NCBI GenBank assembly: GCA_028689435.1
Contig: JAQTWD010000001.1
Location: forward strand, 96 to 64,095
Reading direction: 5' to 3'
Length of the DNA stretch: 64,000 nt
Source: Minisyncoccota bacterium
Lineage (GTDB): Bacteria > Patescibacteriota > Minisyncoccia > Phycocordibacterales > UBA12079
The notes under the pieces are model-generated. The model made no database searches and was not told where the DNA came from. It worked only from the letters and a program-made list of their open reading frames with translations. The position numbers were made by a program, and so were the translations under genes. Within the stretch, counting starts at the first letter, position 1. The number at the start of each line of letters is the position of its first letter. Below are positions 1,184 to 55,972 of the stretch, piece after piece.

Positions 1184-1316
1184 AAAAATTTAGTTTTAAA
1201 TTTATAATATAATTATTAAATAAAATAATTTCTTTACTATCGATTAAATTATAACATCAAAAAACAAAAGAAAAACTATGCCAAGAATTTTCTATACAAA
1301 CAAACAACACACAAAT

Positions 1317-1362
1317 AATTTTCCATATAAAAAATACGGTCGTATTTTTTATATGGAAAATT
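1317..1362 (-). terminator. perfect hairpin (stem ~17 bp, GGTC/GACC apex) directly downstream of mltG
   Basis: TTCCATATAAAAAATAC-GGTC-GTATTTTTTATATGGAA, 6 nt after the mltG stop. Member of the GACC-apex hairpin family. Confidence 0.5.
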
Positions 1363-1367
1363 ATTTT

Positions 1368-3245: not shown

Positions 3246-3641
3246 TTAATCAATTAACATTGGTATTAAATCTCGCGATATTTTACGAACTTTAACTTCT
3301 TTTCTACCTTCAATAACAAGTCGACACAGTCTATGTAAGCCATCTAATATTTCTAACTTCCCCTCGAGGTTTCTCATTAAGTCAATTGGAAAATCTGTAT
3401 CTGCAGTAAATATTCTGTCTTTGTGTTTGGGATATTTTTCAATATCGATTAAAACATTTCTCGGTGAAACACAGTATTTTTTATCACCGTCGTGCCAAAA
3501 AAGAAGATCTAACTGCCATTCTATTTCGGAAACACTAATATCCTCTATTGGGATGTTTTTTAATTCCCAGATTTTGCTTTTATTCCAATTAAAGTCTAAT
3601 CCGGAATTTTTGATAAATTCTGGTCGGTAGGTATTATTCAT
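3246..3641 (-). CDS. ParB/sulfiredoxin-like nuclease-domain protein (tentative)
   Basis: 131 aa. ILDGLHRLCRL resembles the DGxHR core of ParB N-terminal-like domains. Confidence 0.45.
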   Translation of the reverse strand: MNNTYRPEFIKNSGLDFNWNKSKIWELKNIPIEDISVSEIEWQLDLLFWHDGDKKYCVSPRNVLIDIEKYPKHKDRIFTADTDFPIDLMRNLEGKLEILDGLHRLCRLVIEGRKEVKVRKISRDLIPMLID

Positions 3642-7283: not shown

Positions 7284-7475
7284 TTATTTCTTATTTAATT
7301 GTTTAAAAACTTTTTCCTGTAATTCTTTATTTATCACCTGAATCGGCTCGAGAATTATTTTTTCATTTTTAAAACTTATTTCCAAAAAATCACCCTCTTC
7401 TAAACCCAAAACTTCTCTTATTTCTTTTGGAATAGTTATGACTCCTTTGGATTGTACTTTTAATAGTTTATTCAT
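7284..7475 (-). CDS. AbrB/MazE/SpoVT-family DNA-binding protein (antitoxin-like, no partner seen)
   Basis: 63 aa. KVQSKGVITIPKEIREVLGLEEGDFLEI matches the SpoVT-AbrB looped-hinge pattern. Confidence 0.7.
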   Translation of the reverse strand: MNKLLKVQSKGVITIPKEIREVLGLEEGDFLEISFKNEKIILEPIQVINKELQEKVFKQLNKK

Positions 7476-7538: not shown

Positions 7539-7636
7539 AAAAAATACGACCGTATTTTTTATATCATTTTTCTGAATTTCCGAATTTCCGAATTATCATA
7601 AAATTTATGCGACCGCATAAATTTTATGATAATTCG
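7539..7636. repeat. two GACC-apex hairpins plus CCGAAT repeats
   Basis: AAAAAATAC-GACC-GTATTTTTT (7539-7562) and CCGAATTATCATAAAATTTATGC-GACC-GCATAAATTTTATGATAATTCGG (7588-7636). Confidence 0.6.
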
Positions 7637-9716: not shown

Positions 9717-9863
9717 AAAATTAATTTTAAAAAATACTAAATTCTAATACCTAAATCCTAAACAAATTCAAGTTTTTTAATTTCCAAAATTTAAAACCTT
9801 TGTATTTTAAATTTTTGATAATTTGTCATGTTGCTTGCTAAAGCAAGTTGTTTAGAATTTAGA

Positions 9864-9883
9864 CCTGCCTGCCGGCAGGCAGG
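9864..9883. repeat. 20-nt perfect palindrome CCTGCCTGCCGGCAGGCAGG
   Basis: Exact palindrome, one of at least 6 copies in the window. Confidence 0.8.
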
Positions 9884-9974
9884 CAGGGTTTAGTGCTTAG
9901 AGTTTTAATTAAAAAGGACATTTTCGTATAAGACATCTCAAAGACATCAAAAAGACAAAACTGGGGATAACCTA

Positions 9975-10352: not shown

Positions 10353-11646
10353 ATTTTTTTGAAAGAATTTTTTCGCCTACTTTGTAAACATCTCCCGCCC
10401 CCATTGTAATGATGACATCTTCTGGTCCAAAAATATCCGAATTAAATTCATTCATGATTTGATCGTATTCTATATAATAAGTTTCTCTATTATTTTTCTT
10501 TATCTTACTTGCAAGCATTTTGGAATTTATTTCTTTGTCTTCTTCTTCTCTGGCTGCATAAATTGGCAAAACAATTACACGGTCAACATCATTAAAACTT
10601 TTCGCAAAATCTTCTAAAAATATTTTTGTTCTACTATATAGATGTGGTTGAAAGATAACTGTGATTTTTTTACCTCTAAAAAATTCTCGCGCACCCTTCA
10701 ATGTCACTTGTACCTCTGTCGGATTGTGAGCATAGTCATCGTAAATCAAAGCACCTTTTTTTGTTTTGCCCTTTAACTCAAACCTTCTCCACGTACCTTC
10801 AAAATTGTTTAAAGATTTTATTGCATCGCTGTGATTGATACCCAAAATATTCGCAACGGCTAGACAAGCAAAAGCATTTTTTATATTGTGTTCTCCTGGT
10901 ATTTTCAACTTTAAACCAATCGCTCCTTGTGTAGTATAATCGACAACTTTTGAAACAGCCTTAACCAAAGCAGGGGCAACCCTCTTGTCATTTGGATCAC
11001 AAACTATATAGTCCTTTTCCCCCATTTTTGCCATCAGTTCTTTAAATGCTTTTTGGATATCAAAAATATTTTTAAAATAATCTAGATGATCCAAATCTAT
11101 ATTTGTAATCACAAGAATATTTGGTTTTAACTCTAAAAAAGATCTTTTATATTCGCACGCTTCTGTTACAAAATATTTGCTGTTTCCATGTATAAAGTTT
11201 GTTTTTTCTTTTTTTAAAAGACTTCCAACAATAACGGTTGGATCAAAATATGAATCTCGCAATACATCTGCCAACATTGCGGTAGTGGTTGTTTTTCCAT
11301 GTGTTCCAGATACAGCAATCGTATATTTATTTTCTGAAACACTCCCAAGAGAACGCGGATAAGATATTGCAGGGATTCCAATTTTTTTTGCCTTTAACAA
11401 TTCGGGATTATCTTTTGGAACAGCCGGAGAAAAAATAACCAAATCTGTACCAGATTCTATATTTTCTTCGTCGTGTTGAAATTTTATTACAGCTCCAAAT
11501 TTTTTTAATTCAGATGTAATCTCTGATTCTGCCAAATTTGAACCAGTAACCTTTTTTCCTTCTTTCAAAGCCATCCTTGCCATAGCAGAAACACCGATAC
11601 CCCCGATACCGATAAAGTGTATTTTTCTGGCATTTTTGAATTTCAT
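10351..11646 (-). CDS. murC: UDP-N-acetylmuramate--L-alanine ligase
   Basis: 431 aa. IHFIGIGGIGVSAMA, GTHGKTTTT P-loop, Mur ligase middle and C-terminal domains. Confidence 0.9.
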   Translation of the reverse strand: MKFKNARKIHFIGIGGIGVSAMARMALKEGKKVTGSNLAESEITSELKKFGAVIKFQHDEENIESGTDLVIFSPAVPKDNPELLKAKKIGIPAISYPRSLGSVSENKYTIAVSGTHGKTTTTAMLADVLRDSYFDPTVIVGSLLKKEKTNFIHGNSKYFVTEACEYKRSFLELKPNILVITNIDLDHLDYFKNIFDIQKAFKELMAKMGEKDYIVCDPNDKRVAPALVKAVSKVVDYTTQGAIGLKLKIPGEHNIKNAFACLAVANILGINHSDAIKSLNNFEGTWRRFELKGKTKKGALIYDDYAHNPTEVQVTLKGAREFFRGKKITVIFQPHLYSRTKIFLEDFAKSFNDVDRVIVLPIYAAREEEDKEINSKMLASKIKKNNRETYYIEYDQIMNEFNSDIFGPEDVIITMGAGDVYKVGEKILSKK

Positions 11647-11940: not shown

Positions 11941-12188
11941 TGCGAATGCCAGGACTCGAACTCTGAAACACTCCATCGTGTTTCAGCCCGTCATTATCAG
12001 ATTAAATAGTTCCCAAGAACTGTTTAATCGCTCTAACTTTTTAAAGATAAAATAATGTATTAAGTGCGAATGCCAGGACTCGAACCTGGGACCTCGTCAT
12101 TATCAGTGACGCGCTCTAACCACCTGAGCTACACTCGCACTTAATACACTATTTTATTTTTAAAAAGAGCCACCTGAGCTACACTCGC
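11941..12188 (-). pseudogene. outer tRNA-Ile-like gene split in its D-loop by a 133-nt cassette carrying the intact tRNA-Ile
   Basis: cgctctaa (12029-12036) plus ccacctgagctacactcgc (12170-12188) together reproduce the D-arm of the intact gene. The 3' part keeps CTGATAATGACG and GAGTTCGAGTCCTGGCATTCGCA. Unrelated hairpins replace the anticodon-stem and T-stem 5' strands. Confidence 0.7.
12065..12138 (-). tRNA. tRNA-Ile (anticodon GAU)
   Basis: Reverse complement reads GCGAGTGTAGCTCAGGTGGTTAGAGCGCGTCACTGATAATGACGAGGTCCCAGGTTCGAGTCCTGGCATTCGCA, a canonical cloverleaf. Confidence 0.9.
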
Positions 12189-12460
12189 ATTTATATTTGA
12201 TTTTACCACAAACTCTATATGACGAGGTCCCCGAGTCATTATTAGGTGAGACAGTCTGGGAGACTGTCGAACCGCTCTAACCACCTGAGCTACACTCGCA
12301 CTTAATACACTATTTTATTTTTAAAAAGAGCCACCTGAGCTACACTCGCATTTATATTTGATTTTACCACGAACTCTATATGACGAGGTCCCCGAGTCAT
12401 TATTAGGTGAGACAGTCTGGGAGACTGTCGAACCGCTCTAACCACCTGAGCTACACTCGC
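12139..12460 (-). repeat. 2 x 161-nt tandem repeat built from tRNA-Ile fragments
   Basis: Unit 12139-12299 repeats at 12300-12460 with one mismatch. Each unit holds two copies of the tRNA-Ile 5' segment (ccacctgagctacactcgc) and a degenerate tRNA-like body with hairpin GACAGTCTCCCAGACTGTC. Confidence 0.8.
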
Positions 12461-15724: not shown

Positions 15725-15760
15725 ATCTTAAAGTTTTCACGGTCGTGAAAACTTTAAGAT
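15725..15760. repeat. GACC-apex hairpin
   Basis: ATCTTAAAGTTTTCAC-GGTC-GTGAAAACTTTAAGAT. Confidence 0.7.
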
Positions 15761-15800: not shown

Positions 15801-15916
15801 CCTGCCTGCCGGCAGGCAGGGCTTCACTTCGTTCGTAAAGACGGTAGTGGGACGAACATCCGAAGATTGTTCGTCTTCGCGAGTGAAACGAAGCGACCTG
15901 CCTGCCGGCAGGCAGG
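15801..15916. repeat. two CCTGCCTGCCGGCAGGCAGG palindromes bracketing a CTCGCGAAGACG-type inverted repeat
   Basis: Exact 20-mers at 15801-15820 and 15897-15916. Between them, TTCGTTCGTAAAGACG...CGTCTTCGCGAGTGAAACGAAGCG. Confidence 0.75.
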
Positions 15917-15975: not shown

Positions 15976-16018
15976 AAAAACGAACAAGGAGGGAAATTTG
16001 CGAAGCAAATTTCCCTCC
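15976..16018 (-). terminator. intrinsic terminator downstream of secF
   Basis: Minus strand: GGAGGGAAATTTGC-TTCG-CAAATTTCCCTCC followed by TTGTTCGTTTTTG. Confidence 0.65.
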
Positions 16019-21661: not shown

Positions 21662-22891
21662 GTGGATAATTCAAATATTACAAATAAACACAAAAAAGAG
21701 TGCCGAAAACAAGATTTATTCTCATTTAGAAATCTTTTAAAAGCATATTATCAATGCAGAAAAAGAAAAAGAAAGACGGTCAACGCATCAAAATTTGAAC
21801 TTGATTTTGAGAATGAATTATTAAGACTTGAAAAAGAACTAACGAACAAAACATACAAAATAGGTAATTCTATCTGTTTTGTTGTAACATATCCAACACC
21901 ACGAGAAATATTTGCGGCAGATTTTAAAGACAGAATTGTGCACCATCTTTTTATAAACCATATAGAAAAAATCTGGAATAAAAAATTTATTCATCATTCT
22001 TATGCTTGCAGAAAAAACAAAGGAGCACATGAAGCTATCAAAGATTTAAGAAAAACTCTCAGAAAAATAAGCTGTGATTTTTCCTGCCCTGTATATTATT
22101 TACAAGTTGATATTTCTGCATTTTTTATGTCTTTAAAAAAAGATATTCTTTTTGATTTAATTTGCAAACACTTAAAAAATCCTCAATTATTATGGCTAGC
22201 AAAACAAATTATTTTTCACGATCCAACCAAAGATTTTTATTGCAAAAGTGATAAAAAACTTTTTGAATTAATTCCAGACCATAAATCGCTTTTTAAAGTA
22301 CCTTGTAGACAAGGACTTCCTATTGGAAATCTTACATCTCAATTTTTTGCAAATATATATATGAATGAGCTAGACCAATTTGCCAAACACAATCTAAAAA
22401 TAAAATATTATTTTCGTTATGTTGATGATATTTTAATAATTGATGAAGATCCAAAACAACTAGAAAATTGGAAGAATCAAATAAATATTTTTCTCAAAAC
22501 AAAATTAGAAATTCACTTGCATCCAAAAAAATCAAAATTAAGATCTATTTATAAAGGAATAAATTTTGTCGGATTTATTATAAAACCAAATTATTTGATT
22601 ATTAGAAAAAGAACAATATCAAATTTAAAAAGAAAATTGTGGCAATTTAATCAATTTTTTGTAAAAAAAGATTATATTATTTCAAAAAATCAACTTGAAA
22701 AAATTTTGGCCGTTATCAATTCTTATTATGGACATTTTAAACATGCAAATACTTACAATCTTAAGAAATCTATTTATCAAAAACATTTTAAAAAATTAGA
22801 AAAATATATTGTACCCGCAAATGAAAATTTTGATTATTTTGAATTAAAATCTTCTCACACTACAAAAAATAGTTTTAGCAAAAATAAATAA
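21662..22891 (+). CDS. diversity-generating retroelement reverse transcriptase
   Basis: 409 aa. PREIFAADFKDRIVHHL, QGLPIGNLTSQFFANIY (DGR-type IGNxxSQ rather than group-II QGxxxSP), catalytic YVDD. TR and VR lie within 3.5 kb. Confidence 0.85.
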   Translation: MDNSNITNKHKKECRKQDLFSFRNLLKAYYQCRKRKRKTVNASKFELDFENELLRLEKELTNKTYKIGNSICFVVTYPTPREIFAADFKDRIVHHLFINHIEKIWNKKFIHHSYACRKNKGAHEAIKDLRKTLRKISCDFSCPVYYLQVDISAFFMSLKKDILFDLICKHLKNPQLLWLAKQIIFHDPTKDFYCKSDKKLFELIPDHKSLFKVPCRQGLPIGNLTSQFFANIYMNELDQFAKHNLKIKYYFRYVDDILIIDEDPKQLENWKNQINIFLKTKLEIHLHPKKSKLRSIYKGINFVGFIIKPNYLIIRKRTISNLKRKLWQFNQFFVKKDYIISKNQLEKILAVINSYYGHFKHANTYNLKKSIYQKHFKKLEKYIVPANENFDYFELKSSHTTKNSFSKNK

Positions 22892-22931
22892 AATATTTAT
22901 CAAGTTTATATTTATATAATTTTTAAAAAAA

Positions 22932-22967
22932 TGTTTAAAAATGTAGCGGTCGCGATTTTTTTAAACA
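22932..22967. repeat. hairpin TGTTTAAAAATGTAGC-GGTC-GCGATTTTTTTAAACA
   Basis: First of three near-identical hairpins partitioning the DGR locus (also 23614 and 24171). Confidence 0.7.
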
Positions 22968-23003
22968 AATCGGGAAATACCAGATTACAAAACATACTTA
23001 TTT

Positions 23004-23564
23004 TTAATCAATATCAAAAATCTCTTTTAACCACTTATCATTTTCTAGTTTATCAACAGTCATATAAAGCACATCTTTTCCAAGAAACAAATTAGATTTC
23101 ATTAATATTACTAGTTCTTCACAATCATAAGGAAATATCCAAACACTGTTTTGTAATTTAACAAAACCCAACCTGTCCAATGCAGATCTTAATATATGCC
23201 TTGTTCCTTTTCTACTTTCTTTTATATCAAACATCACCACTCGCCATTTTTTATCCCACCTTTTTGGTTTTTTTATTTCTAAATCTCCTATTTCATATTT
23301 AGCCAACTGTTCTTTCCCTTTTTCTGTTATGCGTAGAAATTTTTTTCCGTTTTTTTCCTCCCAAATCAAATTTCCTTTTTGAATAAGATTTTTTATTGAT
23401 TTATTTAGATAATTTTTTCTATTTCTGGTATCTTTTGAAAACTGTTTAAAAACTTGCAAAATATTTGGTGCCAAAACAGCAATACTGATTAGCCCAACTG
23501 TCGCAACTGTTGTCAAAACTATTTTTTGAATATTTAAATTATTTTTTACTTTTTGATTATTCAT
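23004..23564 (-). CDS. PaaX-like / Cas2-fold domain protein with N-terminal TM helix and winged-helix segment
   Basis: 186 aa. KRWDKKWRVVMFDIKESRKGTRHILRSALDRLGFVKLQNSVWIFP resembles the PaaX C-terminal (Cas2-like) domain. Paralog at 55360..55911. Confidence 0.55.
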   Translation of the reverse strand: MNNQKVKNNLNIQKIVLTTVATVGLISIAVLAPNILQVFKQFSKDTRNRKNYLNKSIKNLIQKGNLIWEEKNGKKFLRITEKGKEQLAKYEIGDLEIKKPKRWDKKWRVVMFDIKESRKGTRHILRSALDRLGFVKLQNSVWIFPYDCEELVILMKSNLFLGKDVLYMTVDKLENDKWLKEIFDID

Positions 23565-23613
23565 GATTATTATTGCGGTTACTATTATTACTATAATAAG
23601 TATACTAAAAAGG

Positions 23614-23649
23614 TGTTTAAAAATGTAGCGGTCGTTATTTTTTTAAACA
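23614..23649. repeat. hairpin TGTTTAAAAATGTAGC-GGTC-GTTATTTTTTTAAACA
   Basis: Second DGR-locus hairpin, upstream of the PaaX-like gene start. Confidence 0.7.
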
Positions 23650-23839
23650 ATATATTTTATATTTTATTATTATTTATTATATATACTTTATTTTAAACAC
23701 CTTATCTTTTATTTGTTTCCGAAAACATTCTATTTTAGATTTGATTTTAGACATTTTTTATAAATTTAAAATATTTTAATTTTCTTGAAAGAGCCGAGTT
23801 TTTATAAAATTTAGAGCATTTTTATTAAAATTATAATAA

Positions 23840-23976
23840 CCTAGCGAACACAACGAGAATCGTTCGCGTTAGTCTTAGCATTGTTGTTCGTGTTCCCGTT
23901 GTTCAAGTTCGTGTTCCAAGCATTCTGAGTAGCGTTAGATTGAGTAGTAGCAGACCAATAGTTGTTGGCGGCGTGG
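23840..23976 (-). repeat. DGR template repeat (TR)
   Basis: 137 nt aligning to 24875-25011. All 13 differences are plus-strand T in TR, which is A on the functional minus strand. The TR reading frame is rich in AAC/AAT codons. Confidence 0.9.
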
Positions 23977-24170
23977 ATTATTTCACTATTTGAAACATAA
24001 CCAAATTAATCTTTATCTAAACAAAGTATAATTTGAAAAAACTTTATACTTATTTAATTTATAAAATAAGTAAGTGAAATCGTGATTAAAATTTTAGCTC
24101 TCTTTTGATGTTCTCAAACAATCAAAACTCTGGCTCTTTCAAAAAAATTATTTTTTAGAATATATTATTA

Positions 24171-24206
24171 TGTTTAAAGATGCAGCAGTCGCAATTTTTT
24201 TAAACA
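24171..24206. repeat. hairpin TGTTTAAAGATGCAGCA-GTC-GCAATTTTTTAAACA
   Basis: Third DGR-locus hairpin, between TR and avd. Confidence 0.65.
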
Positions 24207-24461
24207 TCTTTAATTTAATTAAGCATTATTTAAAATTAAAAGTGTGACTATATTTATGTGGATTGCTTCGTGGTACTGCTTCAAATTTTTTCTCAAAAAA
24301 TTTGAAGTGCTCGCAAAGACGGGGGGATTCGTCGTCTTCGCGAGGAGTGGAACGAAGTGGAGCGACGAAGCGATCCACGTCGTTTGTGTTTTGGGTTCTG
24401 TGATTTGTTTGGTCATCTTTGGAATTTGTGTTTTGTGTTTTGTGTTTCTTCTTGAATTACT

Positions 24462-24824
24462 TCACTGCATTCGCAATGATGACGAAGTAGACCACTCTTT
24501 CCATTTGTTTAGTTGTCTACCTATTTCATCTATTTTTCTAGTCAAAAATTCAAAACCTTTTTGACCCAAAATTTTTAAATCAAAACAAATTCTAATATAG
24601 ATTTTTAATTTTTCTAAAATATTTTGTGCATTTTCAAGGTACATTGTTTTATTTTTAGCAGAATTAGCTGTAACAATCAAATCTAACAAATCAATACTCG
24701 TATTTTTTATTTTCTCTCCTATTGAGTGTCTATGCATTCTTGGAAAATTATTCGCTCTTTTGTGAATTTCCAAAGTCAAATCATACGTAGATTGAAAAAT
24801 CGGTAAATGCTGATAACGAGCCAT
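24462..24824 (-). CDS. avd: DGR accessory variability determinant (Avd; four-helix-bundle, 23S-IVS-protein family)
   Basis: 120 aa. NFPRMHRHSIGEKIKNTSIDLLDLIV parallels the Bordetella phage bAvd IPRKHGVAREMF... region. Located between VR and TR as in canonical DGRs. Confidence 0.75.
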   Translation of the reverse strand: MARYQHLPIFQSTYDLTLEIHKRANNFPRMHRHSIGEKIKNTSIDLLDLIVTANSAKNKTMYLENAQNILEKLKIYIRICFDLKILGQKGFEFLTRKIDEIGRQLNKWKEWSTSSSLRMQ

Positions 24825-24874
24825 ATTTAAAATAGATAAATAATTTAAATAATAAAATTACAAAATAATAATCA

Positions 24875-25011
24875 CCTAGCGAACACAACGAGAATCGTTC
24901 GCGTTAGTCTTAGCACTGGCGTTCGTGTACCCGTTGTACAAGGGCGTGTACCAAGCATTCTGAGTAGCGCTAGATAGAGTAGCAGCAGACCAATAGGTGT
25001 AGGCGGCGTGG
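24875..25011 (-). repeat. DGR variable repeat (VR)
   Basis: 3' end of the target gene. The first 41 nt (including the stop codon) are identical to TR; 13 substitutions follow, only at TR-adenine positions. Confidence 0.9.
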
Positions 25012-26204
25012 GGAAGATTCCCCCAAGAACCATCAATATAAGCCTGCATCAATTCTTTTTGATAAGGGGCACGCCAATTACCGTCCCCTAACAATTTACA
25101 ACCTGTAATGTTTGGGGTACTTGTTGCTGTAACACACTGACAGGCATCGTCACCTGTTGCAGAACAAGCCCCAGGGTTTGCCCAAGTCCCCGGCTCCCAA
25201 CAATTGTTTACCCAAAACCAAGTATGATTTGCTCCTCCATCCAACCAATCAGACCAAATCAAACCTGTGCTATTATCTTGATAACAAATATTTCCTGAAC
25301 AAGCGGTGGAATCGCCTGTTTTACAATAATTGTTCGCAGAGGTACATTGTGTCCAAGATGCAGAAAAAGTATCTGTTGGCATAGTGGTATTGTTGTTGTA
25401 ATCGTCCACACCACCCTTGACCTGAGTATAAAAAGCATAATCAAGAACACTCGTTCCAGCAGTTCCATTTTTTTGATTAACCACAGAAAACATACTCCTA
25501 TTCTCCAAATATTCTAGTCTTTCCAAAATATTTCCATCAGCATTCGCGGTTATTGTAGTTGAGCTATACCCTGTTTGAGAAATTGCGTCTAAATGACCGG
25601 CTCTTTCATCTGTCCATGTCGTCGTTGATAGTGCCGTATCTGATGAAGGAACTTTGTCCCACAGTCTTTTAAACCAACCAAAAATAGTATCTGTGCTTGT
25701 CGCAACAGAAGAACTACCAATATTATAGGCAATACTGCCTTCAACCGGAGTTGTTGATGATGTTGAGCTGGAAACAAGAAATCTTAAATCTGAATTAATA
25801 AAATCTAGATATCCAGCTCTCGTATCTGTCCATGTTGTTGTTGAAAGAGCAGTATCAGAAGATGCTCTTGATGAAATAGTAGTATTTAGATTATCTACAA
25901 TCAATTTACCAACACTATCAACGGTGGTTAATTCGGAAACACTTTTATTCCAAATACCAGAAACCAAACCTGCTATTGAATCACTAATTGCCTCCAAACT
26001 ATCTGTTGTTCTGTCAAAAGTATTATTAACATCTTTGGCTGTCATTTCCAAAATTGTCCACATGGTAGAAGCTGGGCTGGAAGAGGGGGTCAGAGACCCT
26101 GCTCTTACAACAGTCGAAACGGCAAAAGAAGATACCAAAACAATAGCCAAGACTTTTGAAAGATTTTGTATGCCCATTTTTATAAATCTATTCTTATTTT
26201 TCAT
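24876..26204 (-). CDS. DGR target protein: secreted/anchored, C-terminal DUF1566 / C-type-lectin (FGE-like) fold
   Basis: 442 aa. N-terminal signal/TM, internal duplication SSDTALSTTTWTD(T/E)RAG(Y/H)LD, C-terminus NWRAPYQKEL...NDSRCVR carrying the VR. Confidence 0.8.
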   Translation of the reverse strand: MKNKNRFIKMGIQNLSKVLAIVLVSSFAVSTVVRAGSLTPSSSPASTMWTILEMTAKDVNNTFDRTTDSLEAISDSIAGLVSGIWNKSVSELTTVDSVGKLIVDNLNTTISSRASSDTALSTTTWTDTRAGYLDFINSDLRFLVSSSTSSTTPVEGSIAYNIGSSSVATSTDTIFGWFKRLWDKVPSSDTALSTTTWTDERAGHLDAISQTGYSSTTITANADGNILERLEYLENRSMFSVVNQKNGTAGTSVLDYAFYTQVKGGVDDYNNNTTMPTDTFSASWTQCTSANNYCKTGDSTACSGNICYQDNSTGLIWSDWLDGGANHTWFWVNNCWEPGTWANPGACSATGDDACQCVTATSTPNITGCKLLGDGNWRAPYQKELMQAYIDGSWGNLPHAAYTYWSAATLSSATQNAWYTPLYNGYTNASAKTNANDSRCVR

Positions 26205-28321: not shown

Positions 28322-28352
28322 GGCGGGAAATTTGCTTCGCAAATTTTCCGCC
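28322..28352. terminator. hairpin GGCGGGAAATTTGC-TTCG-CAAATTTTCCGCC between convergent genes
   Basis: Same hairpin type as at 15988-16018 and 63958-64000. Confidence 0.5.
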
Positions 28353-31101: not shown

Positions 31102-31182
31102 TGGAGCAAGGGGCTGGATTTGAACCAGCGACAACACAACCTACTCAGGCTATGAGCTCTGTCCTGACTGAGCTACCCTTGC
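31102..31182 (-). tRNA. tRNA-like element in the 23S-5S spacer with a non-canonical anticodon arm (identity undetermined)
   Basis: Reverse complement reads GCAAGGG-TA-GCTCAGTCAGGACAGAGC-T-CATAGCCTGAGTAGGTTGTG-TTGTC-GCTGGTTCAAATCCAGC-CCCTTGC-T-CCA. Acceptor, D-arm, T-arm and an encoded CCA are perfect, but the anticodon arm is a 7-8 bp stem with a 4-6 nt loop. Confidence 0.55.
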
Positions 31183-31474: not shown

Positions 31475-32333
31475 CGTGTTTAAAAAATTTCATTCTTTTC
31501 GAAATTCGAAACTATGAATTCAAAATTTTTTATCTTCCCCTATTTCTAGGAGCACAGACTATATCTTCACCCTTTCCTCATGAACAGGACTGGGGTGGTG
31601 GCGTGTTACATACAGAGACTGTCATTTTCACCGAAATGATTCAGCACATCCATACGTCTGTCATAAAAATGGTTTTATTTTTATAGACAAGTCGTTACGG
31701 GGTCAAACCCAAAATTCTATACAAATCTTTTTTATTTAAAGTACTTCGACTGGCATAATTTTCTTTTTTGATTATTAATACCAAATCAACTATTCTGCGT
31801 ATTTGTTGTTTAGATAAATTGTTTATATTAACAGAGCTTAAAATTTCACAAGCTTCTATAAGAGCTTTAGTCTGTTTAGACTTGAACTTTATAAAAGGTT
31901 GTAATAATAAAAGAATTTCTTTTATTGTTTTAAATCCATTAATACGCAATTCGGACATTCCATCGTTTCTACGAGAAATGTATCCCACTCCAAACACTTT
32001 ACGCATCCACAAAAGTGGTTTTTCATGACGAGTATCTTGATACAGACAAATTGTTGCCATAAATCTTACGCCCTTTTTTGTATCAGAACGTTTTTTGATT
32101 TGTAACATCAAACTGCCATCACCATCAAGAAAACCCGCGATGTACGCTAAATTATTTGTATTGATTTTGAATCGACTTCCCACGGTATTGCCTTAAAGAG
32201 GATTATGGTCCTCAAGCATATTATACCACACAAGAACCGAGAGTGTGTATAATACTCAAACCACAACCATATGAAGGTTTCACCGTTATAGCCACTTTGT
32301 CATCACACATCTCTGTGTGAAGTAGCAAAATTT
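31475..32333 (-). mobile_element. group-I intron in the sarcin-ricin loop (between E. coli positions ~2656 and 2657) with a LAGLIDADG ORF
   Basis: Exon junction CCTAGT|...|ACGAGAGGACCGG. The 5' exon ends in U and the intron ends in G. J8/7-like GAAGATATAGTCTG is present. Confidence 0.75.
31695..32183 (-). CDS. LAGLIDADG homing endonuclease (single-motif type)
   Basis: 162 aa. LAYIAGFLDGDGSLML. GTG start inside the conserved 17-mer CAATACCGTGGGAAGTC. Confidence 0.8.
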   Translation of the reverse strand: MGSRFKINTNNLAYIAGFLDGDGSLMLQIKKRSDTKKGVRFMATICLYQDTRHEKPLLWMRKVFGVGYISRRNDGMSELRINGFKTIKEILLLLQPFIKFKSKQTKALIEACEILSSVNINNLSKQQIRRIVDLVLIIKKENYASRSTLNKKDLYRILGLTP

Positions 32334-32489: not shown

Positions 32490-33341
32490 CAATGTCGTCT
32501 TTGAACCGCGAGATTCAAAGTTTTAATCCATTGTTACCAATGGTTTGGACTATATATTCACCTTTTTTTTAAAAAAGTTAAGGTGTTGGCGTTTTAGCAC
32601 TTCGTATTTGAAGCACTCTGTCCGTCAACCGACGGACAAGTCTCTACGGGGTCATAACTCAATTTGTATTTCATTGAAGGAATAATGTGTGGTTCAATAA
32701 TAGAATTCAATTTTTCAATACTTTCTTTCAAAAATCTAATCCTATAATATTTTTTATCTTTATTTAAACGAGCCTTTAAGCCCATTTTTCTCAAAGAATG
32801 CAATAATATTTTTTGTTCCTTCATAGAAAATTGTTGTGTGTTTAAATACACATCATTTTTTCTAGATTTACTTCCATCATCCATAAACCAAACCGCTAAA
32901 ATAATTGAATCTAATTCCAAATTATTTGGTATGGTTTTACTTTTATTTTTGTAAAAGTTTTTCATTAAATCAGTTATTTCTGGATGTTGTTTTGTAAAAA
33001 ATCTATAAGCTTTTCTGTCATTTTCTCCACTACTTCCTTTTGGAGGAGAAACACAAATATTTTTTAATATAGAATATTTCCAATCAACATATTCTTTGGC
33101 TTTGATAGAATGATTTATTTCTAAAAATGCATCTTTCCTGTTAGGTGCAATCCTAACATATCCATCACCAAGAATAGATCCCATTATTACTGATTTTTGT
33201 TGTTGAGTTAGACTTCCCACGGTATTGTCCATAATCATTACATTATAGCTGATTATATTATGGAGTCCACCGTTATAAGCCAATATTTTTTGTAGGATAT
33301 TTCTATCCTAGGCACCCCGATGTAAGTTGTAACTTAAGTTA
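32490..33341 (-). mobile_element. group-I intron at 23S position ~2500 (peptidyl-transferase centre) with a LAGLIDADG ORF
   Basis: Exon junction GGCACCT|...|CGATGTCGGCTC. The 5' exon ends in U and the intron ends in G. J8/7-like GAATATATAGTCC is present. Confidence 0.8.
32594..33283 (-). CDS. LAGLIDADG homing endonuclease (double-motif type)
   Basis: 229 aa in the track. Motifs IMGSILGDGY and AVWFMDDGS. The true start may be the GTG at 33220, inside the same 17-mer seen in the other intron. Confidence 0.8.
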   Translation of the reverse strand: MAYNGGLHNIISYNVMIMDNTVGSLTQQQKSVIMGSILGDGYVRIAPNRKDAFLEINHSIKAKEYVDWKYSILKNICVSPPKGSSGENDRKAYRFFTKQHPEITDLMKNFYKNKSKTIPNNLELDSIILAVWFMDDGSKSRKNDVYLNTQQFSMKEQKILLHSLRKMGLKARLNKDKKYYRIRFLKESIEKLNSIIEPHIIPSMKYKLSYDPVETCPSVDGQSASNTKC

Positions 33342-33911
33342 AGGTGCCGAACATCGCCGTCGATATGAACTCTTAGGCGATACCAGCCTGTTATCCCCAG
33401 GGTAGCTTTTATCCGTTAATCTTCACCCGCGTCTAATGCGAGGTGTCGGTTCACTATGCTCTGCTTTCGCACTTGTTCGGCATGCACGCCTCACAATCAA
33501 GCCAGCTTGTGCCATTACACTATCAGCACGGTTTCCATTCGCGCTTAGCTGACCTTAATAGGCTCCTCCGTTACTTTTTAGGAGGATAGCGCCCCACTAA
33601 AACTACCTGCCAGATACTGTCTCCCGCCGTTTTTTCCGTCGAGATTAGAATGTACATTTTTAAAGAGTGGTATTTCACTGATGACTCCAGACAATCCAAA
33701 AACTGCCCTTCAAAGTCTCCCACCTATGCTACGCATCAAAAACATACACCCAATACCAAGCTATAGTAAAGCTCCTGGGGTCTTTTCGTCTAGCTGCAGG
33801 TAACCGGCATCTTCACCGGTATTGTATTTTCACCGAGCTGTTCCCCGAGACAGTATCCCACTCATTACGCCATTCGTGCACGTCTACAATTACTAGACAA
33901 GGAATTTCGCT

Positions 33912-34290
33912 TGATTTTGTTACTATCCAATTTAAAACTGGATGAATGAATCATTTCTGTTCATTTCTACATATCGCTATGCAGTCCGGACTATAATTTC
34001 TAAGTTTAAAACTTAGTCTAGCGTTTAGTCTCTGAGGATTCTTGCGTATTTTGCAAGTCTTTCCTGCTGATTTTCCGCACTGATCAGATTTTTACTTTTT
34101 AGAAAAGTACTGTCAGATTCTCGGATTTTCCAGCATATGGCTAGATGTTTTATGACGTTTTATAAAATAAATTTTATAAAACAGGCAACATTTATTCCTT
34201 AAATTACTTTGTACACCAATTTTTTATCTTGTTTATCTTAGTATCCACAACAGTCCTAGTCTTTGTACCTCCTTATAAAAAAGAGGCACA
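33912..34290 (-). mobile_element. ORF-less group-I-like intron at 23S position ~1931
   Basis: Exon junction CCTAAGGT|...|AGCGAAATTCC. J8/7-P7-like GAAATTATAGTCCGGAC is present. The last intron base reads A, not the expected G. Confidence 0.6.
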
Positions 34291-34325
<35 letters not shown>

Positions 34326-34344
34326 CAGGGCTTATATCAGACAG

Positions 34345-34485
34345 CACGCTCCTCGCTTCGCTCGGAGCAAGTAGTAAGTAAAAGGCAAAAGTAATAAGTA
34401 AAAAATTTGCTTCGCAAATTTTTTCGTTTCTTACTACTTACACCTTACTCCTTAGCACTTGCGTTCCAAACGCAGTGAGGAACGT
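34345..34485. repeat. AGTAAGTA-type palindromic insertion in 23S
   Basis: ACGCTCCTCGCTTCGCTCGGAGCAAGTAGTAAGTAA...AAAAAATTTGCTTCGCAAATTTTTT...CTTAGCACTTGCGTTCCAAACGCAGTGAGGAACGT, absent from the recalled E. coli sequence at this helix. Confidence 0.7.
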
Positions 34486-34600
34486 ACCACCAATATTTAA
34501 CCTTCTGGCATTGGTCAGGCGTCACCCCCTATACATCCTCTTGCGAGTTCGCAGGGAGCTGTGTTTTTGATAAACAGTTGGCAGGATTACTTTCGCTGCG

Positions 34601-34815
34601 GCCGTCGCATCTCGCTACGCTCGATACTCAAATTTTTAATTTTTAATTTTTAATTTTCAAACAATTTTTAATGAAATAATTTTTAAACACGACGACAAAA
34701 TTTGCTTTGCAAATTTTGTGTTTAAAAATTTAAGACATTTTAAAATTTGATATTGTTTAGAAATTAAAAATTAAAAATTAAAAATTCGGCATCAAATGTA
34801 ATGAGATGCGACGGC
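34601..34815. repeat. 215-nt AT-rich palindromic insertion in 23S
   Basis: Arms GCCGTCGCATCTC / GAGATGCGACGGC enclose (AAATTTTTAATTTTT)n arms and a central AAAATTTGCTTTGCAAATTTT hairpin. Confidence 0.7.
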
Positions 34816-35352
34816 AAGCCTTATTCCGAAGTTACGGCTGCTATTTTGCCGAGTTCCTTGGGGAATTATCACTCGTTCGCCTTGGTCTTCTCGACCTGAC
34901 TACCTGTGTCGGTTTACGGTACGGGTTCTTTATACTTAACCTTAGAAGCTTTTCTTGGAAGGCTCTTCGTAAGAATTTTCCAACCCGAGGGAAGAAATTT
35001 AATCTATTTACGAAATTCGACATTAAAGTCAGTTTCCCGGATTTTCCTAAGAAACAATTCTTAAAATAAAATACACAAATCCAATAATGTGCTCTTACTT
35101 GTGTCCTCCGTCACTCCATCGAAATACAAAGAAGTTACGGAATATTAACCGTATGTCCATCAGATCCGGTTTTCACCATCTCCTTAGGCCCGACTAACCC
35201 TTCGCTGATCACCATTGCGAAGGAAACCTTAGTCTTTCGGCGTGCAGGGATCTCACCTGCATTGCGGTTACTTGTGCCAACATTCTCGCTTCTGTACGCT
35301 CCACCATGGCTTACGCCTTTGGCTTCATTGCAGAACAGAATGCTCTCCTACC

Positions 35353-35483
35353 GCTTGTGCAAAGCACAAGCGAGTCATAAGTGATAAGTACTAAGTAATA
35401 AGTAAAAAATTTGCTTCGCAAATTTTTTCGTTTCTTACTACTTAAACCTTACTACTTTTAACTCGCTTGTGCTTTGCACAAGC
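35353..35483. repeat. AGTAAGTA-type palindromic insertion in 23S
   Basis: GCTTGTGCAAAGCACAAGC + ...AGTAATAAGTAAAAAATTTGCTTCGCAAATTTTTTCGTTTCTTACTACTT... + GCTTGTGCTTTGCACAAGC. Confidence 0.7.
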
Positions 35484-36100
35484 CCTAACCTTCGGTACCA
35501 TACTTAGCCCCGATTATTTGCGGCGCAATATCTCTTGATGAGTGAGCTGTTACGCTATCTTTAAAGGATGGCTGCTTCTAAGCCAACCTCCTCATTGTCT
35601 GAGAAATTTCACCTCCTTAAGTGCACTTAGTATGAATTTTGGGACCTTAGATGTAGGTCTGGGCTGTTTCCCTTTTGACCAATGGAGCTTAGCCCCCACA
35701 GTCTAACTGCCTAGAAATTGACTACTGGTATTCGGAGTTTGATAGGATTGACGAAGTTTCCCCCTATTCAATCCTTCCAGTGCTCTACCCCCAGTAGGTA
35801 ATCTAGACGCTAACCCTAAAGCTATTTCGGAGAGAACCAGCTATTACCAAGTTCGATTAGCTTTTCACTACTTGCCACAAGTCATCCGATAGAGTTGAAC
35901 GACTAACCGGTTCGGGCCTCCTTCCGTCTTTCGACGAAATTCACCCTGCTCATGGCAAGCTCACTTGGCTTCGGGTCCTAAACATACAACACAATTTTTT
36001 CGCGCTATTCACACTCGCTTTCGCTGTGCCTCCTTGCTAACGCAATTAGGCTGCTGCATATTTAGACTCGTTGGCTCATTCTTCAATAGGCACGCGGTCA

Positions 36101-36248
36101 CCGTCGCATCTTGCTATGCAAGATGCGACGAAATTAAAAATTTTAAATTATAAATTTGACCAAACAAAAAATAAATTTTTTGTTTTAATTTATAATTTAA
36201 AATTTATCATTTATAATTCCGTCGTTCTTACGCAGTAAGATACGACGG
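36101..36248. repeat. multi-hairpin palindromic insertion in 23S
   Basis: CCGTCGCATCTTGC-TATG-CAAGATGCGACG + an AT-rich palindrome + CGTCGTTCTTACGCAGTAAGATACGACGG. Confidence 0.65.
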
Positions 36249-36299
36249 CTCCCACTCCTTGTAGGCATATGGTTTCAGGTCTATTTCACTCCCCTCTCC

Positions 36300-36342
<43 letters not shown>

Positions 36343-36555
36343 ATCTCTAAAAGTATTTAGCCTTACCGGTTAGTTCCGGCAGATTCCCCCAAGCCATTCG
36401 TGTCTTGAGGTACTCAGGAACAACAATAAAAAAGATAAATTGTTTTCGTTTACGGGACTATTACCCTCTAGGGTCCTGCTTCCCAGCAGATTCAACTAAC
36501 AAAATATTTTTTGACTTTTTTCATTACAAGAATGACACTGTTGTCCTACAACCCC

Positions 36556-36702
36556 AGTCGCTCCTCGCTATGCTCGGAGCAAGTAGTAAGTAATAAGGTA
36601 TAAATAATAAGTAAAAAATTTGCTTCGCAAATTTTTTCGTTTCTTACTACTTATACCTTACTCCTTAGCACTTGCGTTCCGAACGCAGTGAGGAACGACT
36701 GG
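36556..36702. repeat. AGTAAGTA-type palindromic insertion in 23S (near-duplicate of 34345..34485)
   Basis: CAGTCGCTCCTCGCTATGCTCGGAGCAAGTAGTAAGTAATAAGG...CTTAGCACTTGCGTTCCGAACGCAGTGAGGAACGACTGG. Confidence 0.7.
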
Positions 36703-37335
36703 TTTGGGCTCTTTCGCTTTCGCTCGCCACTACTTACGAAATATTATCTAAATAAATAGACATTGTTTTCTTTTCCTCTGGGTACTGAGATGTTTCACTT
36801 CCCCAGGTGCACTCCGAGTATCCTTTATAGATACAAGGTAATCTGTGTTCAACAGATTGGGTTCCCCCATTCGGAAATCTCCGGATCACAGGTTGCTAGT
36901 CACCTACCCGAAGCTTATCGCAGACATGCCACGTCCTTCATCGCCTTTTAGAGTCAAGGCATCCACCATACGCCCTTATGAATTTCCTATTAGGAAATTC
37001 AAACAACGCAATTCTTATTTTAATACAATTTTTTTACCTACAGATCTAAAAATTTAATTTTTAATTAAACTTAAAGACCCATTGATTGACTTGTCTCTGG
37101 TATAAGACAAATCACTTGTTATTCATTTTTCAACGAACATTTCATTCAGCCATTTAATCTTACAGTCTCGGCGAAGTTTTGGATAAATCCAAAACTTCGC
37201 TGAAACAATAAATTTAAAAAAAATAAAACCGCTCTTTTTGTTTTAAGCGGTATCTACCCAAGATAGCATCTAAAAGACGCCTACATCACCCGCTTATTTA
37301 AATTAGTTTTAGCTACTCTATTTAGCACGGTTACT

Positions 37336-38643: not shown

Positions 38644-38663
38644 CCTGCCTGCCGGCAGGCAGG
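38644..38663. repeat. CCTGCCTGCCGGCAGGCAGG palindrome
   Basis: Exact 20-mer. Confidence 0.8.
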
Positions 38664-38734: not shown

Positions 38735-38777
38735 AAAAATACCAAAATTTATGCGACCGCATAAATTTTGGTATTTT
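38735..38777. repeat. GACC-apex hairpin (possible terminator of 38785..38988)
   Basis: AAAAATACCAAAATTTATGC-GACC-GCATAAATTTTGGTATTTTT. Shares the inner stem with the copy at 7601-7623. Confidence 0.65.
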
Positions 38778-38784
38778 TGTTTTT

Positions 38785-40388: not shown

Positions 40389-40454
40389 GATAAATAAAAA
40401 ATTATTTATAAAAAATTATATCAATAAAAAATTTACGTTTAAAAAATATGTTTA

Positions 40455-40505
40455 AAAAATTTACGTAAAATTAGTCCGACCGTTCCAATTTTACGTAAAT
40501 TTTTT
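40455..40505. repeat. GACC-apex hairpin
   Basis: AAAATTTACGTAAAATTAGTCC-GACC-GTTCCAATTTTACGTAAATTTT. Confidence 0.6.
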
Positions 40506-48704: not shown

Positions 48705-48724
48705 CCTGCCTGCCGGTAGGCAGG
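48705..48724. repeat. CCTGCCTGCCGGTAGGCAGG palindrome (1 mismatch)
   Basis: Member of the 20-nt palindrome family, inside the rpsJ-rplC spacer. Confidence 0.75.
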
Positions 48725-53803: not shown

Positions 53804-54122
53804 AAATTATAAATTTTAAATGATAAATTTTAAATTAAACATCTCCGTCTTTGCGAGTGGTTTTTTTAGTGGAATTTTTAAAAACAAAGTTTTTAAAAAT
53901 TCCACTAAAAAAATCACGAAGCAATCCAGAAAGATAAAATAAAGTCACTAATGACTTTTTAACAAAAATAATAATATACCAAAAACCCGACAAAAGCAAC
54001 GAAATTTTGCTAGGCAAAATTTCTAGGTGTAAGGGTTAAGGAGTAAGGTGTAAGTAAATTGATACAATTAACCTAAACAAAAATTACTAACAAAAAATTA
54101 AAAGTTACAAAATATAAAAAAC

Positions 54123-54164
54123 ATAATCTTAAACTTCTGACGACCGTCAGAAGTTTAAGATTAT
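54123..54164. repeat. GACC-apex hairpin ATAATCTTAAACTTCTGAC-GACC-GTCAGAAGTTTAAGATTAT
   Basis: Perfect 19-bp stem. Related copies at 55254, 55927 and 15725. Confidence 0.75.
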
Positions 54165-54404
54165 TTATTTTTTAAAGTTAATATCAAATTCTAACTACTA
54201 AAATAATGTTTAAAATATTGCACCCGCAAAAATTTGAACATTTTTTATATTCTCAATTCAAATACTCTTTACTCAATCCATACGACCGTATAAATTGAGT
54301 AAAAGAATATTTTTGTTATATACATGTGTAATATATACGTAATGTGTATAAAGTTGACGACCGTCAAAGTCATACACATTTTAAAAAATGAATTATTAAA
54401 TTTT

Positions 54405-54453: not shown

Positions 54454-54487
54454 GTCAAAGGGACAAAGAGTCCAAGGGTCATGAGGG

Positions 54488-55215: not shown

Positions 55216-55253
55216 TATATTAAAAAACTCTAGTAAAAAATTAAAGAATGTAT

Positions 55254-55290
55254 CATCTTAAACTTTTGACGACCGTCAGAATTCTAAGAT
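55254..55290. repeat. GACC-apex hairpin ATCTTAAACTTTTGAC-GACC-GTCAGAATTCTAAGAT
   Basis: Lies between the two island genes, downstream of the PaaX-like paralog. Confidence 0.7.
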
Positions 55291-55359: not shown

Positions 55360-55911
55360 TTATTTTAAACCAAAAAACTCCTTCAACCGACTTTCGTTTT
55401 CTATCCTATTTACTTCCATATATAAAACATCACTATCAACAAAAAAATTTGTTTTAAGCAAAAATATCAATTCTTCACATTCATAAGGAAACACCCAAAC
55501 ACTGTTTTGTAATTTAACAAAACCAATTCTTTCTAAATTTGACCTTAATAAATTTCTTAAATTTCTTTTCTTTTCTTCTACATCAAAAATAACCACTCTC
55601 CATTTTTTATCCCATCGTTTTGGCTTTTTTATCTCCAAATCACCCAACTCATATTTTGCGAACATCTCCTTTCCTTTTTTTGTAATTTTTATAAATTCAG
55701 AATTGCCTTTTCTAACTTTTTCTAACAAACCTTTTTCTAATAATTTTTTTATGGTTTCACTTAAATAGTATCTTTCATTTACCCATTTCTTTTTATTTGG
55801 TGAAAATTGTTTTACTACCTGCAATGCGTTTGGAGCAACAACGGCAATACCAATCAAACCAACCGCAACAACAGTCTTTAAAATAATTTTTTGATAATTT
55901 ATATTACTCAT
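55360..55911 (-). CDS. PaaX-like / Cas2-fold domain protein with N-terminal TM helix (paralog of 23004..23564)
   Basis: The track frame opens at 55932, but that extension overlaps the upstream hairpin. The likely start is MSNINYQKI at 55911. KRWDKKWRVVIFDVEEKKRNLRNLLRSNLERIGFVKLQNSVWVFP. Confidence 0.55.
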   Translation of the reverse strand: MSNINYQKIILKTVVAVGLIGIAVVAPNALQVVKQFSPNKKKWVNERYYLSETIKKLLEKGLLEKVRKGNSEFIKITKKGKEMFAKYELGDLEIKKPKRWDKKWRVVIFDVEEKKRNLRNLLRSNLERIGFVKLQNSVWVFPYECEELIFLLKTNFFVDSDVLYMEVNRIENESRLKEFFGLK

Positions 55912-55926: not shown

Positions 55927-55972
55927 ATACAATCTTAGAATTATGACGACCGTCAGAATTCTAAGATTGTAT
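55927..55972. repeat. GACC-apex hairpin ATACAATCTTAGAATTATGAC-GACC-GTCAGAATTCTAAGATTGTAT
   Basis: 16 nt upstream of the PaaX-like start. Confidence 0.7.

Follow-up and report, generated by a model that had tools for sequence, protein, structure and literature searches.

A family of short PaaX-like genes carries, in many Patescibacteria, matched palindromes on both sides of the gene, and we study this gene-plus-palindrome family through its two members in a 64,000-nt stretch of a Minisyncoccota bacterium (GCA_028689435.1, contig JAQTWD010000001.1, positions 96-64,095 of the forward strand; hereafter the window). In a comparison set of 80 homologous loci from other Patescibacteria assemblies (1.13 Mb, each locus centred on the homolog), palindromes centred on CGRYCG are 211-fold denser close to the homolog than elsewhere. 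A reading of the window made without database searches (the sequence-only reading) had described these elements as hairpins; in the account that we find likeliest, at about even odds, they are double-stranded operators of the protein encoded between them, which would be a dimeric, truncated PaaX-type regulator. The two genes and the four sites that flank them (no strand assigned to palindromes) are as follows.

23004..23564, minus strand: paralog 1, 186 aa, short PaaX-like protein with a predicted winged helix and a Cas2-like PaaX_M domain
23614..23649: beta palindrome upstream of paralog 1, TGTTTAAAAA-N5-CGGTCG-N5-TTTTTAAACA; fold -11.4 kcal/mol, z -4.3
22932..22967: beta palindrome that separates paralog 1, on its downstream side, from a convergent reverse transcriptase (RT) gene; -9.2 kcal/mol, z -1.6
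55360..55911, minus strand: paralog 2, 183 aa, short PaaX-like protein; rpsG and fusA, ~2.4 kb apart, enclose it
55927..55972: upstream alpha site of paralog 2, centred 38 bp from the ATG; -23.6 kcal/mol, z -9.0
55254..55290: alpha palindrome downstream of paralog 2, left arm imperfect; -9.9 kcal/mol, z -2.7

Association of gene and palindromes across genomes

All four flanking palindromes, each with a CGACCG-type centre, lie where the sequence-only reading had placed them. The beta pair at locus 1 forms direct repeats with 91% identity over 45 nt, both of them weak as hairpins, and the alpha pair at locus 2 is identical in its right half of 24 nt. The weak folding at locus 1 follows from the build of the sites (half-site-N5-core-N5-half-site), in which the inner spacers are not complementary. 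The same reading had held that the stems are private to a locus and that the apex type is dispersed through the window, and we find just this: the arms fall into distinct types, alpha and beta, and orphan palindromes occur elsewhere. The hexamer CGACCG/CGGTCG is present 16 times in the window compared to 5.4 expected (0 of 100 shuffles reach 16), 13 of these 16 stand exactly at the centre of an inverted repeat, and the longest perfect stems of the window (20-25 bp) belong to the CGACCG-centred class.

For the comparison set, we define a near zone as all sequence up to 300 bp from the homolog (47 kb summed over the loci), leaving 1.04 Mb as the rest, and apply one criterion throughout. CGRYCG-centred palindromes number 67 in the near zone and 7 in the rest (binomial p 6e-83 for the 211-fold ratio of densities), and hairpins of other kinds are merely 3-fold enriched near the homolog. 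Among hairpins with a 4-nt loop in these loci, the most frequent apexes are CGGTCG (28), CGACCG (22) and CGATCG (10). Of the 7 far sites, at least the one in L004 stands immediately upstream of a second copy of the paralog, and L075 has a weaker far site in the same position relative to an extra copy. Upstream sites have a median centre of -48 relative to the ATG and a tight mode (-46 to -48); downstream sites have a median centre of +42 relative to the stop. The two sites of one unit are ~660 bp apart (range 612-889 bp), and across this range there is no helical phasing between them. Where a good reference palindrome is available, 36 of 43 loci have a copy upstream and a copy downstream whose arms match, while the arms are unrelated between loci; here the comparison of related genomes that the sequence-only reading had proposed bears out its gene-plus-hairpin units. 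As the enrichment, the fixed upstream distance and the matching arms recur across loci, we regard the gene and its two matched palindromes as a unit and not as an accident of the window. We also considered the downstream site as the operator of the next gene, and ruled this out since neither distance nor orientation is fixed.

These data bear directly on the simplest alternative, that there is no functional link and that ordinary terminators or generic repeats stand beside the genes by chance. At least three other dispersed hairpin families in the window, and the many orphan CGRYCG palindromes at terminator-like positions there, speak for such a view. However, it must contend with the enrichment by the family across 80 loci from many genomes, with arms that match within a locus and not between loci, with the fixed upstream distance and with the lack of U-tract enrichment, and we consider it highly improbable. 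The scenario of simple terminators, which the sequence-only reading had set against its own proposal, is contradicted by a gene-plus-palindrome unit kept across dozens of genomes.

The family is large. A first search gave at least 254 relatives, and among the 120 listed the labels, where present, are of Patescibacteria type; a profile search gave at least 620 clusters at 50% identity (E<=1e-30), with the matches listed essentially all from Patescibacteria. A single weak relative was found in IMG/VR, so that the family is essentially absent from viral contigs. Genomes carry from two to seven or more paralogs, which within one genome are 45-84% identical, with no identical or near-identical pair. 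The neighbours of the gene are diverse housekeeping genes (292 ORFs, or open reading frames, in 207 clusters across the 80 loci), among which we found no general conserved partner gene; the 11 loci of one ortholog group have the same neighbours on each side.

Architecture of the site and fold of the protein

The site is 36-44 bp long, with arms private to the gene copy and a common CGRYCG centre. When 48 palindromes are aligned without gaps, the paired share of stem cells is 93.6%, compared to 50.9% in shuffles, and double-sided changes number 318 compared to 97. G·U makes up 10 of the 59 non-Watson-Crick cells, which amounts to no wobble tolerance. The AC and GT orientations of the core are unbiased (16:15 upstream, 13:14 downstream) and the symmetric variants CGATCG and CGGCCG also occur; the core is therefore CGRYCG, composed of two CGR half-sites. 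The two copies in L073 have their cores in opposite orientation, with the asymmetric spacers unchanged in direction. Pairing reaches 88-99% at -10 to -17 from the centre and is lower (77-91%) beside the core, which is the reverse of what is expected for a loop-nucleated hairpin. U-tracts, defined as at least 8 T per 12-nt window, accompany 3 of 32 downstream sites and 1 of 35 upstream sites. Conservation in one ortholog group from Nomurabacteria, whose proteins are 68-92% identical, is limited to TTACYTAA, the core and TTAGGTAA, and the spacers of 6-7 bp are variable and not complementary; the beta sites of the window are built alike. Taken together, the random core orientation, few G·U pairs, missing U-tract, outer symmetry and variable spacers argue for a symmetric double-stranded site and not for an RNA or strand-specific hairpin.

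The surroundings of the upstream site suggest where it might act. Hexamers resembling a -10 box are ~2-fold commoner in the 20-36 bp that directly follow the upstream palindrome than further upstream (32 loci), and often lie 6-7 nt before the ATG, suggesting leaderless or short-leader mRNAs. With the box at this position, the palindrome would be centred near -40 and cover the -35 region. For paralog 1 the promoter candidate has -35-like hexamers in the gene-proximal arm of 23614-23649, and for paralog 2 there are -10-like hexamers at the distal edge of or within 55927-55972 and in the 15 bp before the ATG; these candidates fit the cross-genome geometry only loosely.

Could the palindromes work as RNA instead? 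As hairpins at transcript ends (terminators or stabilisers), they would be bound or cleaved by a Cas2/VapD-like protein in a form of post-transcriptional self-control. Some Cas2 and VapD proteins are ribonucleases, the covariation of the stems is strong, and several copies in the window have T runs and stand just past stop codons. Yet G·U pairs are not enriched, the loop reads GACC, GGUC, GAUC or GGCC with no fixed direction with respect to the gene, U-tracts are found at just the three downstream sites counted above, and the inner stem positions, which are the least paired, are unpaired in one ortholog group. No Rfam family matches the palindromes. Furthermore, because the -10-like boxes lie downstream of it, the upstream site is probably outside the gene's own mRNA. 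We therefore consider this account quite unlikely.

We now turn to the protein. The two genes are paralogous, as the sequence-only reading had it (59% identity, E 2e-78), and the sole significant Pfam match of both is PaaX_M (PF20803; 70.2 and 71.9 bits, cut-off 24), described by Pfam as "PaaX protein central Cas2-like domain". Winged-helix and Cas2 matches in Pfam are weak and below threshold (for Cas2 PF09827, 17.7 and 20.4 bits, cut-off 23.8), and the N-terminal PaaX winged-helix family is not among the matches up to E=1. The PaaX equivalog TIGR02277, with a cut-off of 264.55, gives 35 and 42 bits and is matched at model positions 36-132 only; the C-terminal ligand-binding domain of PaaX is missing, as the proteins stop at residue 186 or 183. 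The NCBI Cas2 model TIGR01573, finally, scores at its cut-off (24.3 and 26.7 bits, cut-off 24.5), and for this reason many records carry the name "CRISPR-associated endonuclease Cas2". For this family the name is a misannotation, one which inflates the apparent CRISPR content of Patescibacteria genomes.

An AlphaFold model built on an alignment of 41 sequences (mean pLDDT, or predicted local distance difference test, of 84) has a complete winged helix in residues 12-93 (H1 12-23, strand 25-27, H2 28-40, H3 49-62, wing 66-79) and a ferredoxin fold, with residues 107-170 modelled as a beta-alpha-beta-beta-alpha-beta domain. Its top fold match in the PDB (Foldseek) is E. coli PaaX 8A39 (E 4e-5, 181 columns aligned), followed by the PaaX-like Rv0674, and isolated winged-helix proteins and Cas2 proteins each fit one half; by sequence, no solved structure is matched significantly. 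Profile and structure thus answer the question of fold that the sequence-only reading had raised (PaaX_C or Cas2?) in favour of a PaaX/Cas2-like protein with PaaX_M above its cut-off, and the protein models as a truncated PaaX-type repressor. That reading had also named an ordinary repressor as the outcome that would undo it; the protein does model as a repressor, but the supposed hairpin is itself the likely, predicted operator.

Variability in the protein is highest in the recognition helix (mean pairwise distance 0.71 compared to 0.39 for the Cas2-like domain), and of all regions it is this helix whose divergence best tracks that of the arms, with a partial r of 0.11 that is small and confounded by phylogeny (0 of 300 permutations are as high). 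Qualitatively, lineages with alike arms have alike recognition helices; L005 and L012, recent duplicates with 82% identity, are unlike each other in helix and arms alike.

From the conserved association, the symmetry of the site and the fold, we infer that the protein binds the palindromes and represses its own gene. A dimer would bind the tripartite site of 36-44 bp, consisting of two outer half-sites 10-17 bp from the centre and the invariant CGRYCG core. The outer half-sites would be read by the hypervariable recognition helix and so be private to each paralog. The Cas2-like domain would serve as the dimerisation core, as in PaaX, with the C-terminal ligand-binding domain gone. The upstream site, at about -48 from the ATG and about -40 from the likely transcription start, would overlap the gene's own -35 and give autorepression; the downstream site and a few orphans may be second operators, roadblocks or insulators, and sites that lie in AT-rich stretches with T runs may additionally be terminators. 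After duplication, paralogs would diverge in recognition helix and arms, giving sets without cross-reaction. If the palindromes are operators, the genomes hold, ready-made, dozens of natural repressor-operator pairs that do not cross-react. It would also provide a handle on gene regulation in uncultivated bacteria with reduced genomes, where almost no regulator has known targets.

Orphan palindromes, rival explanations and surroundings in the window

A number of observations weigh against the operator reading. A regulator whose sites flank mainly its own gene has no obvious physiological target. In many sites the palindrome is perfect along 20-28 bp of each arm. A dimer would need far less, and another force shapes them too (e.g. 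gene conversion, a role as terminator, or the formation of hairpins or cruciforms). Even spacer changes specific to one lineage are shared by both copies at a locus, which therefore evolve in concert; this requires gene conversion or a copying mechanism. Some lineages have the core CTATAG with the protein's invariant residues unchanged; for this reason we also rejected the Cas2-like domain as the reader of the core. Promoter calls are weak in DNA of 25-35% GC, the enrichment being about 2-fold. Residues 15-33 are hydrophobic enough to score as a membrane helix (Kyte-Doolittle mean 2.22); the sequence-only reading had seen a transmembrane helix here, and its hydrophobicity is real, but AlphaFold packs these residues as H1, strand and H2 of the winged helix. 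The Cas2-like half, with a mean column identity of 79%, is conserved far beyond the need of a dimerisation module, and D113 at the end of beta1 is invariant in alignments of 41 and of 81 sequences. Lastly, the window has nine orphan palindromes in 64 kb, compared to about five in 1.04 Mb of other genomes; they are mostly centred ~28-80 nt past stop codons and not at promoter distance, they cluster in mixed types (7547/7610 and 54141/54283/54358), and one 36-nt orphan is identical in unrelated flanks of two genomes. The palindromes of the window other than the four flanking sites, together with a gene that some of them bracket, are listed here.

1313..1366: orphan CGRYCG palindrome with 25-bp arms, centre 28 nt past the yceG stop; A and T runs
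7539..7560: orphan CGRYCG palindrome, short-armed, similar to the sites that flank the gene in L001
7587..7638: orphan with a CGRYCG centre and arms of 24 bp
15725..15760: orphan, fourth copy of the alpha type; secF on one side, the 16S rRNA gene on the other
24171..24206: third beta palindrome, degenerate core CAGTCG
38735..38778: orphan CGRYCG palindrome, arms differing at 2 of 15 positions from the flanking sites of the L007 paralog; A and T runs
40454..40505: orphan palindrome with a 10-nt centre containing CGACCG, between convergent genes
54116..54171: alpha palindrome beyond gene 54488-55195, with A and T runs; looks like a bidirectional terminator
54268..54303: orphan palindrome, 36/36 identical to a site in Campbellbacteria CP011215 (L005:19232), flanks unrelated
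54341..54380: orphan CGRYCG palindrome, arms like the site upstream of the extra paralog in L004
54488..55195, minus strand: gene of 235 aa without family assignment (no Pfam, NCBIfam or PADLOC match), bracketed by alpha palindromes

The alpha type, ATCTTA-N24-TAAGAT, has four copies in the window (15725, 54126, 55255 and 55932). Several other orphans resemble the sites of other paralog lineages (38754 those of L007, 7547 those of L001, 54358 that of the extra copy in L004), which suggests that further paralogs elsewhere in the genome own them. A relaxed tblastn search found no decayed paralog remnants beside the orphans. A metagenome scan for 54268-54303 as a widely dispersed repeat gave only its already-known second genomic context, and this idea was dropped. 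In Campbellbacteria, loci L081-L083 have two orphan CGRYCG palindromes each. There clpB and mnmA are separated by 1.6 kb of mostly non-coding DNA, in which the two palindromes (3397-3450 and 4337-4380) stand at a distance of ~940 bp, and one has arms cognate to a paralog 6.5 kb off. Around the Campbellbacteria homolog of L082, the palindromes upstream and downstream are immediately adjoined by tandem (AAAACTT)n and (TTGATTAA)n (9820-9895 and 10700-10745), and ~1.1 kb after the gene contains one short called ORF only.

The orphans and the concerted evolution of the two copies keep in play the idea of a selfish or domesticated system resembling REP/RAYT (repetitive extragenic palindromes and their REP-associated tyrosine transposases), a comparison which the sequence-only reading had drawn as a hypothesis. 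The winged helix would recognise palindromic ends, the Cas2-like domain would nick or cleave, units and solo palindromes would spread or be kept, and orphans would be dispersed copies or excision scars. The layout of this analogy stands: each gene is flanked by cognate palindromes with a palindrome family of its own per paralog, both ends evolve in concert, and units sit in varied housekeeping contexts, one of them between rpsG and fusA, and the same gene neighbourhood has the paralog at other positions in L002, L006 and L014 than in the window, L010 and L054. The orphans of the window, with their mixed-type clusters and the 36-nt copy shared by two genomes, also fit, as does D113, which aligns with the active-site Asp of Cas2 and is absent in the PaaX-like Rv0674. 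The transposase part of the analogy does not stand. The protein has no HUH/Y1 or other transposase domain in Pfam. The scanned ORFs of the window yielded neither a transposase nor an integrase, and these ORFs are the scope of all our statements on missing genes below. Paralogs in one genome are never near-identical, the 11-locus group keeps a stable synteny, orphans are rare outside this lineage and no gene remnants accompany them. The core has no polarity, unlike in strand-specific hairpin recognition, and the non-complementary spacers beside it in some groups argue against an obligatory hairpin. No pair of filled and empty sites with a solo palindrome was found; after rpsG such a comparison was uninformative, as the related loci lack fusA there. 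On balance we think this origin unlikely.

A related proposal, which we also find unlikely, puts the weight on the Cas2-like half: the winged helix would target the private palindromes and the D113 core would cut or copy them, maintaining or spreading units in the Candidate Phyla Radiation (CPR). Such a nuclease module would be an analogue of REP/RAYT and possibly a relative of a repeat-recognising ancestor of the CRISPR adaptation proteins. D113 aligns with an Asp of the Cas2-like protein 3EXC in a weak alignment whose E-value is not significant, and Rv0674 has a threonine at the equivalent position, again in a weak alignment. In a variant, the hydrophobic N-terminus would anchor the protein in the membrane and the palindromes would be membrane-tethered or related to DNA uptake. 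If the Cas2-like domain acts catalytically on the repeats, the module would be a new class of palindrome-associated element.

The matched palindromes might also be the recombination sites of an excisable or invertible cassette, analogous to an attC-bounded integron cassette or an invertible switch, with solo palindromes as empty sites. Near-identical sites at the spacing given above, concerted evolution of the pair and mixed core orientations (13 same, 8 opposite), as inversion would give, agree with such a cassette, and so do the site-gene-site-X-site arrays of the window, which bracket the template repeat discussed below and gene 54488-55195. On the other hand, no recombinase was found in or near the units, syntenic positions yielded no empty site marked by a lone cognate palindrome, and the fixed distance of the upstream site from the ATG is typical of a promoter element. 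We judge recombination very unlikely.

Paralog 1 stands inside a diversity-generating retroelement (DGR), and the sequence-only reading had tentatively tied its function to this. The DGR is real, and its layout over 21662-26204 is unusual in that target, avd and template repeat (TR) are on the minus strand and the RT, on the plus strand, is convergent.

21662-22891, plus strand: RT gene, convergent with the rest of the DGR
23827..23976, minus strand: TR, with its variable repeat (VR) at 24862-25011; 14/15 mismatches at TR adenines
24462-24824, minus strand: Avd gene
24876-26204, minus strand: DGR target gene

Paralog 1 is placed between TR and RT, and a strain-level contig has the same layout. 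However, the homolog P0006 (75% identical) is found in a housekeeping context, flanked by genes for an M50 peptidase and a tRNA synthetase, and an RT lies within 10 kb at 2 of 80 loci; the link to the DGR is therefore probably incidental. There is no extra site near the RT in L034. In the window the third beta site (24171-24206) stands between avd and TR and, together with 23614-23649, brackets TR, which may leave room for local regulatory co-option.

Around paralog 2, the ~2.4 kb between rpsG and fusA (53803-56230) holds the paralog, the 235-aa gene and three orphan palindromes of three arm types, in a cluster that is otherwise classical (rpsL-rpsG-fusA-tuf-S10 (rpsJ)).

Other repeats share the window with these sites. 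The GC-rich palindrome CCTGCCTGCCGGCAGGCAGG has six window sites with none expected (9864-9883, 15801-15820, 15897-15916, 38644-38663, 48705-48724 and 63108-63127) and 12 matches in 11 of 90 fetched loci; its copies at 15801, 15897 and 38644 are ~60-165 bp from CGRYCG orphans. A hairpin family GGAAATTTGC-GAA/TTC-GCAAATTTCC has three sites compared to 0.03 expected (15992-16014, 28326-28348 and 63968-63990), and shorter AAAAAATTTGC-TTC-GCAAATTTTTT copies are located within the 23S rRNA region (34400-34424, 35404-35428 and 36613-36637). At 12120-12354 the 24-nt CCACCTGAGCTACACTCGCACTTA occurs four times with spacings of 50, 111 and 50 nt, the first copy overlapping the start of a tRNA-Ile. A 63-aa ORF on the minus strand (7284-7475), AbrB/SpoVT-like by eye, starts 74 nt from orphan 7539-7560. 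The 16S, 23S and 5S genes are not in a single operon; the 23S rRNA match (33291-36989) is 3699 nt long for a model of 2925 nt and thus has ~770 nt of insertions, and two LAGLIDADG endonuclease genes (31695-32183 and 32594-33283) lie just downstream of it, before the 5S gene. At 31102-31182, ARAGORN reports a tRNA with the four-base anticodon gagt and no amino acid assigned (Rfam tRNA 43.7 bits).

Comparison with known systems

Intrinsic terminators share with the family the placement of inverted repeats just past stops, and a few window copies have A and T runs. They differ in that most copies here have no U-tract, the conserved centre is independent of orientation, identical arms stand on both sides of the gene and the palindromes are strongly and specifically enriched at one gene family.

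With Cas2 of CRISPR systems the protein has in common the ferredoxin-like fold and the beta1 aspartate, and the flanking repeats are about as long as a CRISPR repeat. Here, by contrast, the domain is fused to a predicted winged helix and the repeats enclose the gene itself. There is no CRISPR-like array in the window, cas1 and other cas genes were not found, and PADLOC gives weak Cas2 matches only.

As in REP/RAYT systems, cognate extragenic palindromes stand on either side of a gene, the palindrome family changes with the paralog, and solo intergenic palindromes occur, often at gene 3' ends and sometimes in mixed clusters. RAYT proteins have an HUH/Y1 transposase fold, which the family protein lacks, and in REP a 5' tetranucleotide is read on one strand, whereas the motif of the family is central and without polarity. 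Copy number is low in most genomes (2-4 per paralog), and the paralogs are old and partly syntenic. The resemblance is an analogy of layout and not membership.

The closest comparison is PaaX, the GntR-type phenylacetate repressor of E. coli and Pseudomonas (8A39, 3L09), which has an N-terminal winged helix followed by PaaX_M, the order also predicted for the family protein. The E. coli PaaX operator is TGATTC-N27-GAATCA, 39 bp long, and PaaX represses its own promoter (Px) by blocking RNA polymerase (PMC9493321). Like the sites described here, this is a long palindrome with widely spaced half-sites; the family sites span 36-44 bp, with half-sites somewhat nearer the centre. PaaX differs in having ~300 aa with a C-terminal phenylacetyl-CoA-binding domain, compared to ~185 aa without it, and paa genes were not found in the window. 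The family also differs from PaaX in its multiple paralogs, its sites on both sides of the gene, the invariant CGRYCG core, the many sites that are palindromic over their full length and the retained beta1 aspartate of Cas2. The tripartite site, with private outer half-sites around a universal core, and its copies on both sides have no described counterpart in the PaaX family, and we found no description of the module in the literature searched on PaaX/Cas2-like proteins or CPR palindromes. Large and, in that literature, undescribed, the gene-plus-palindrome family is most likely best filed as a variation on the PaaX-type theme of a regulator and its operator.

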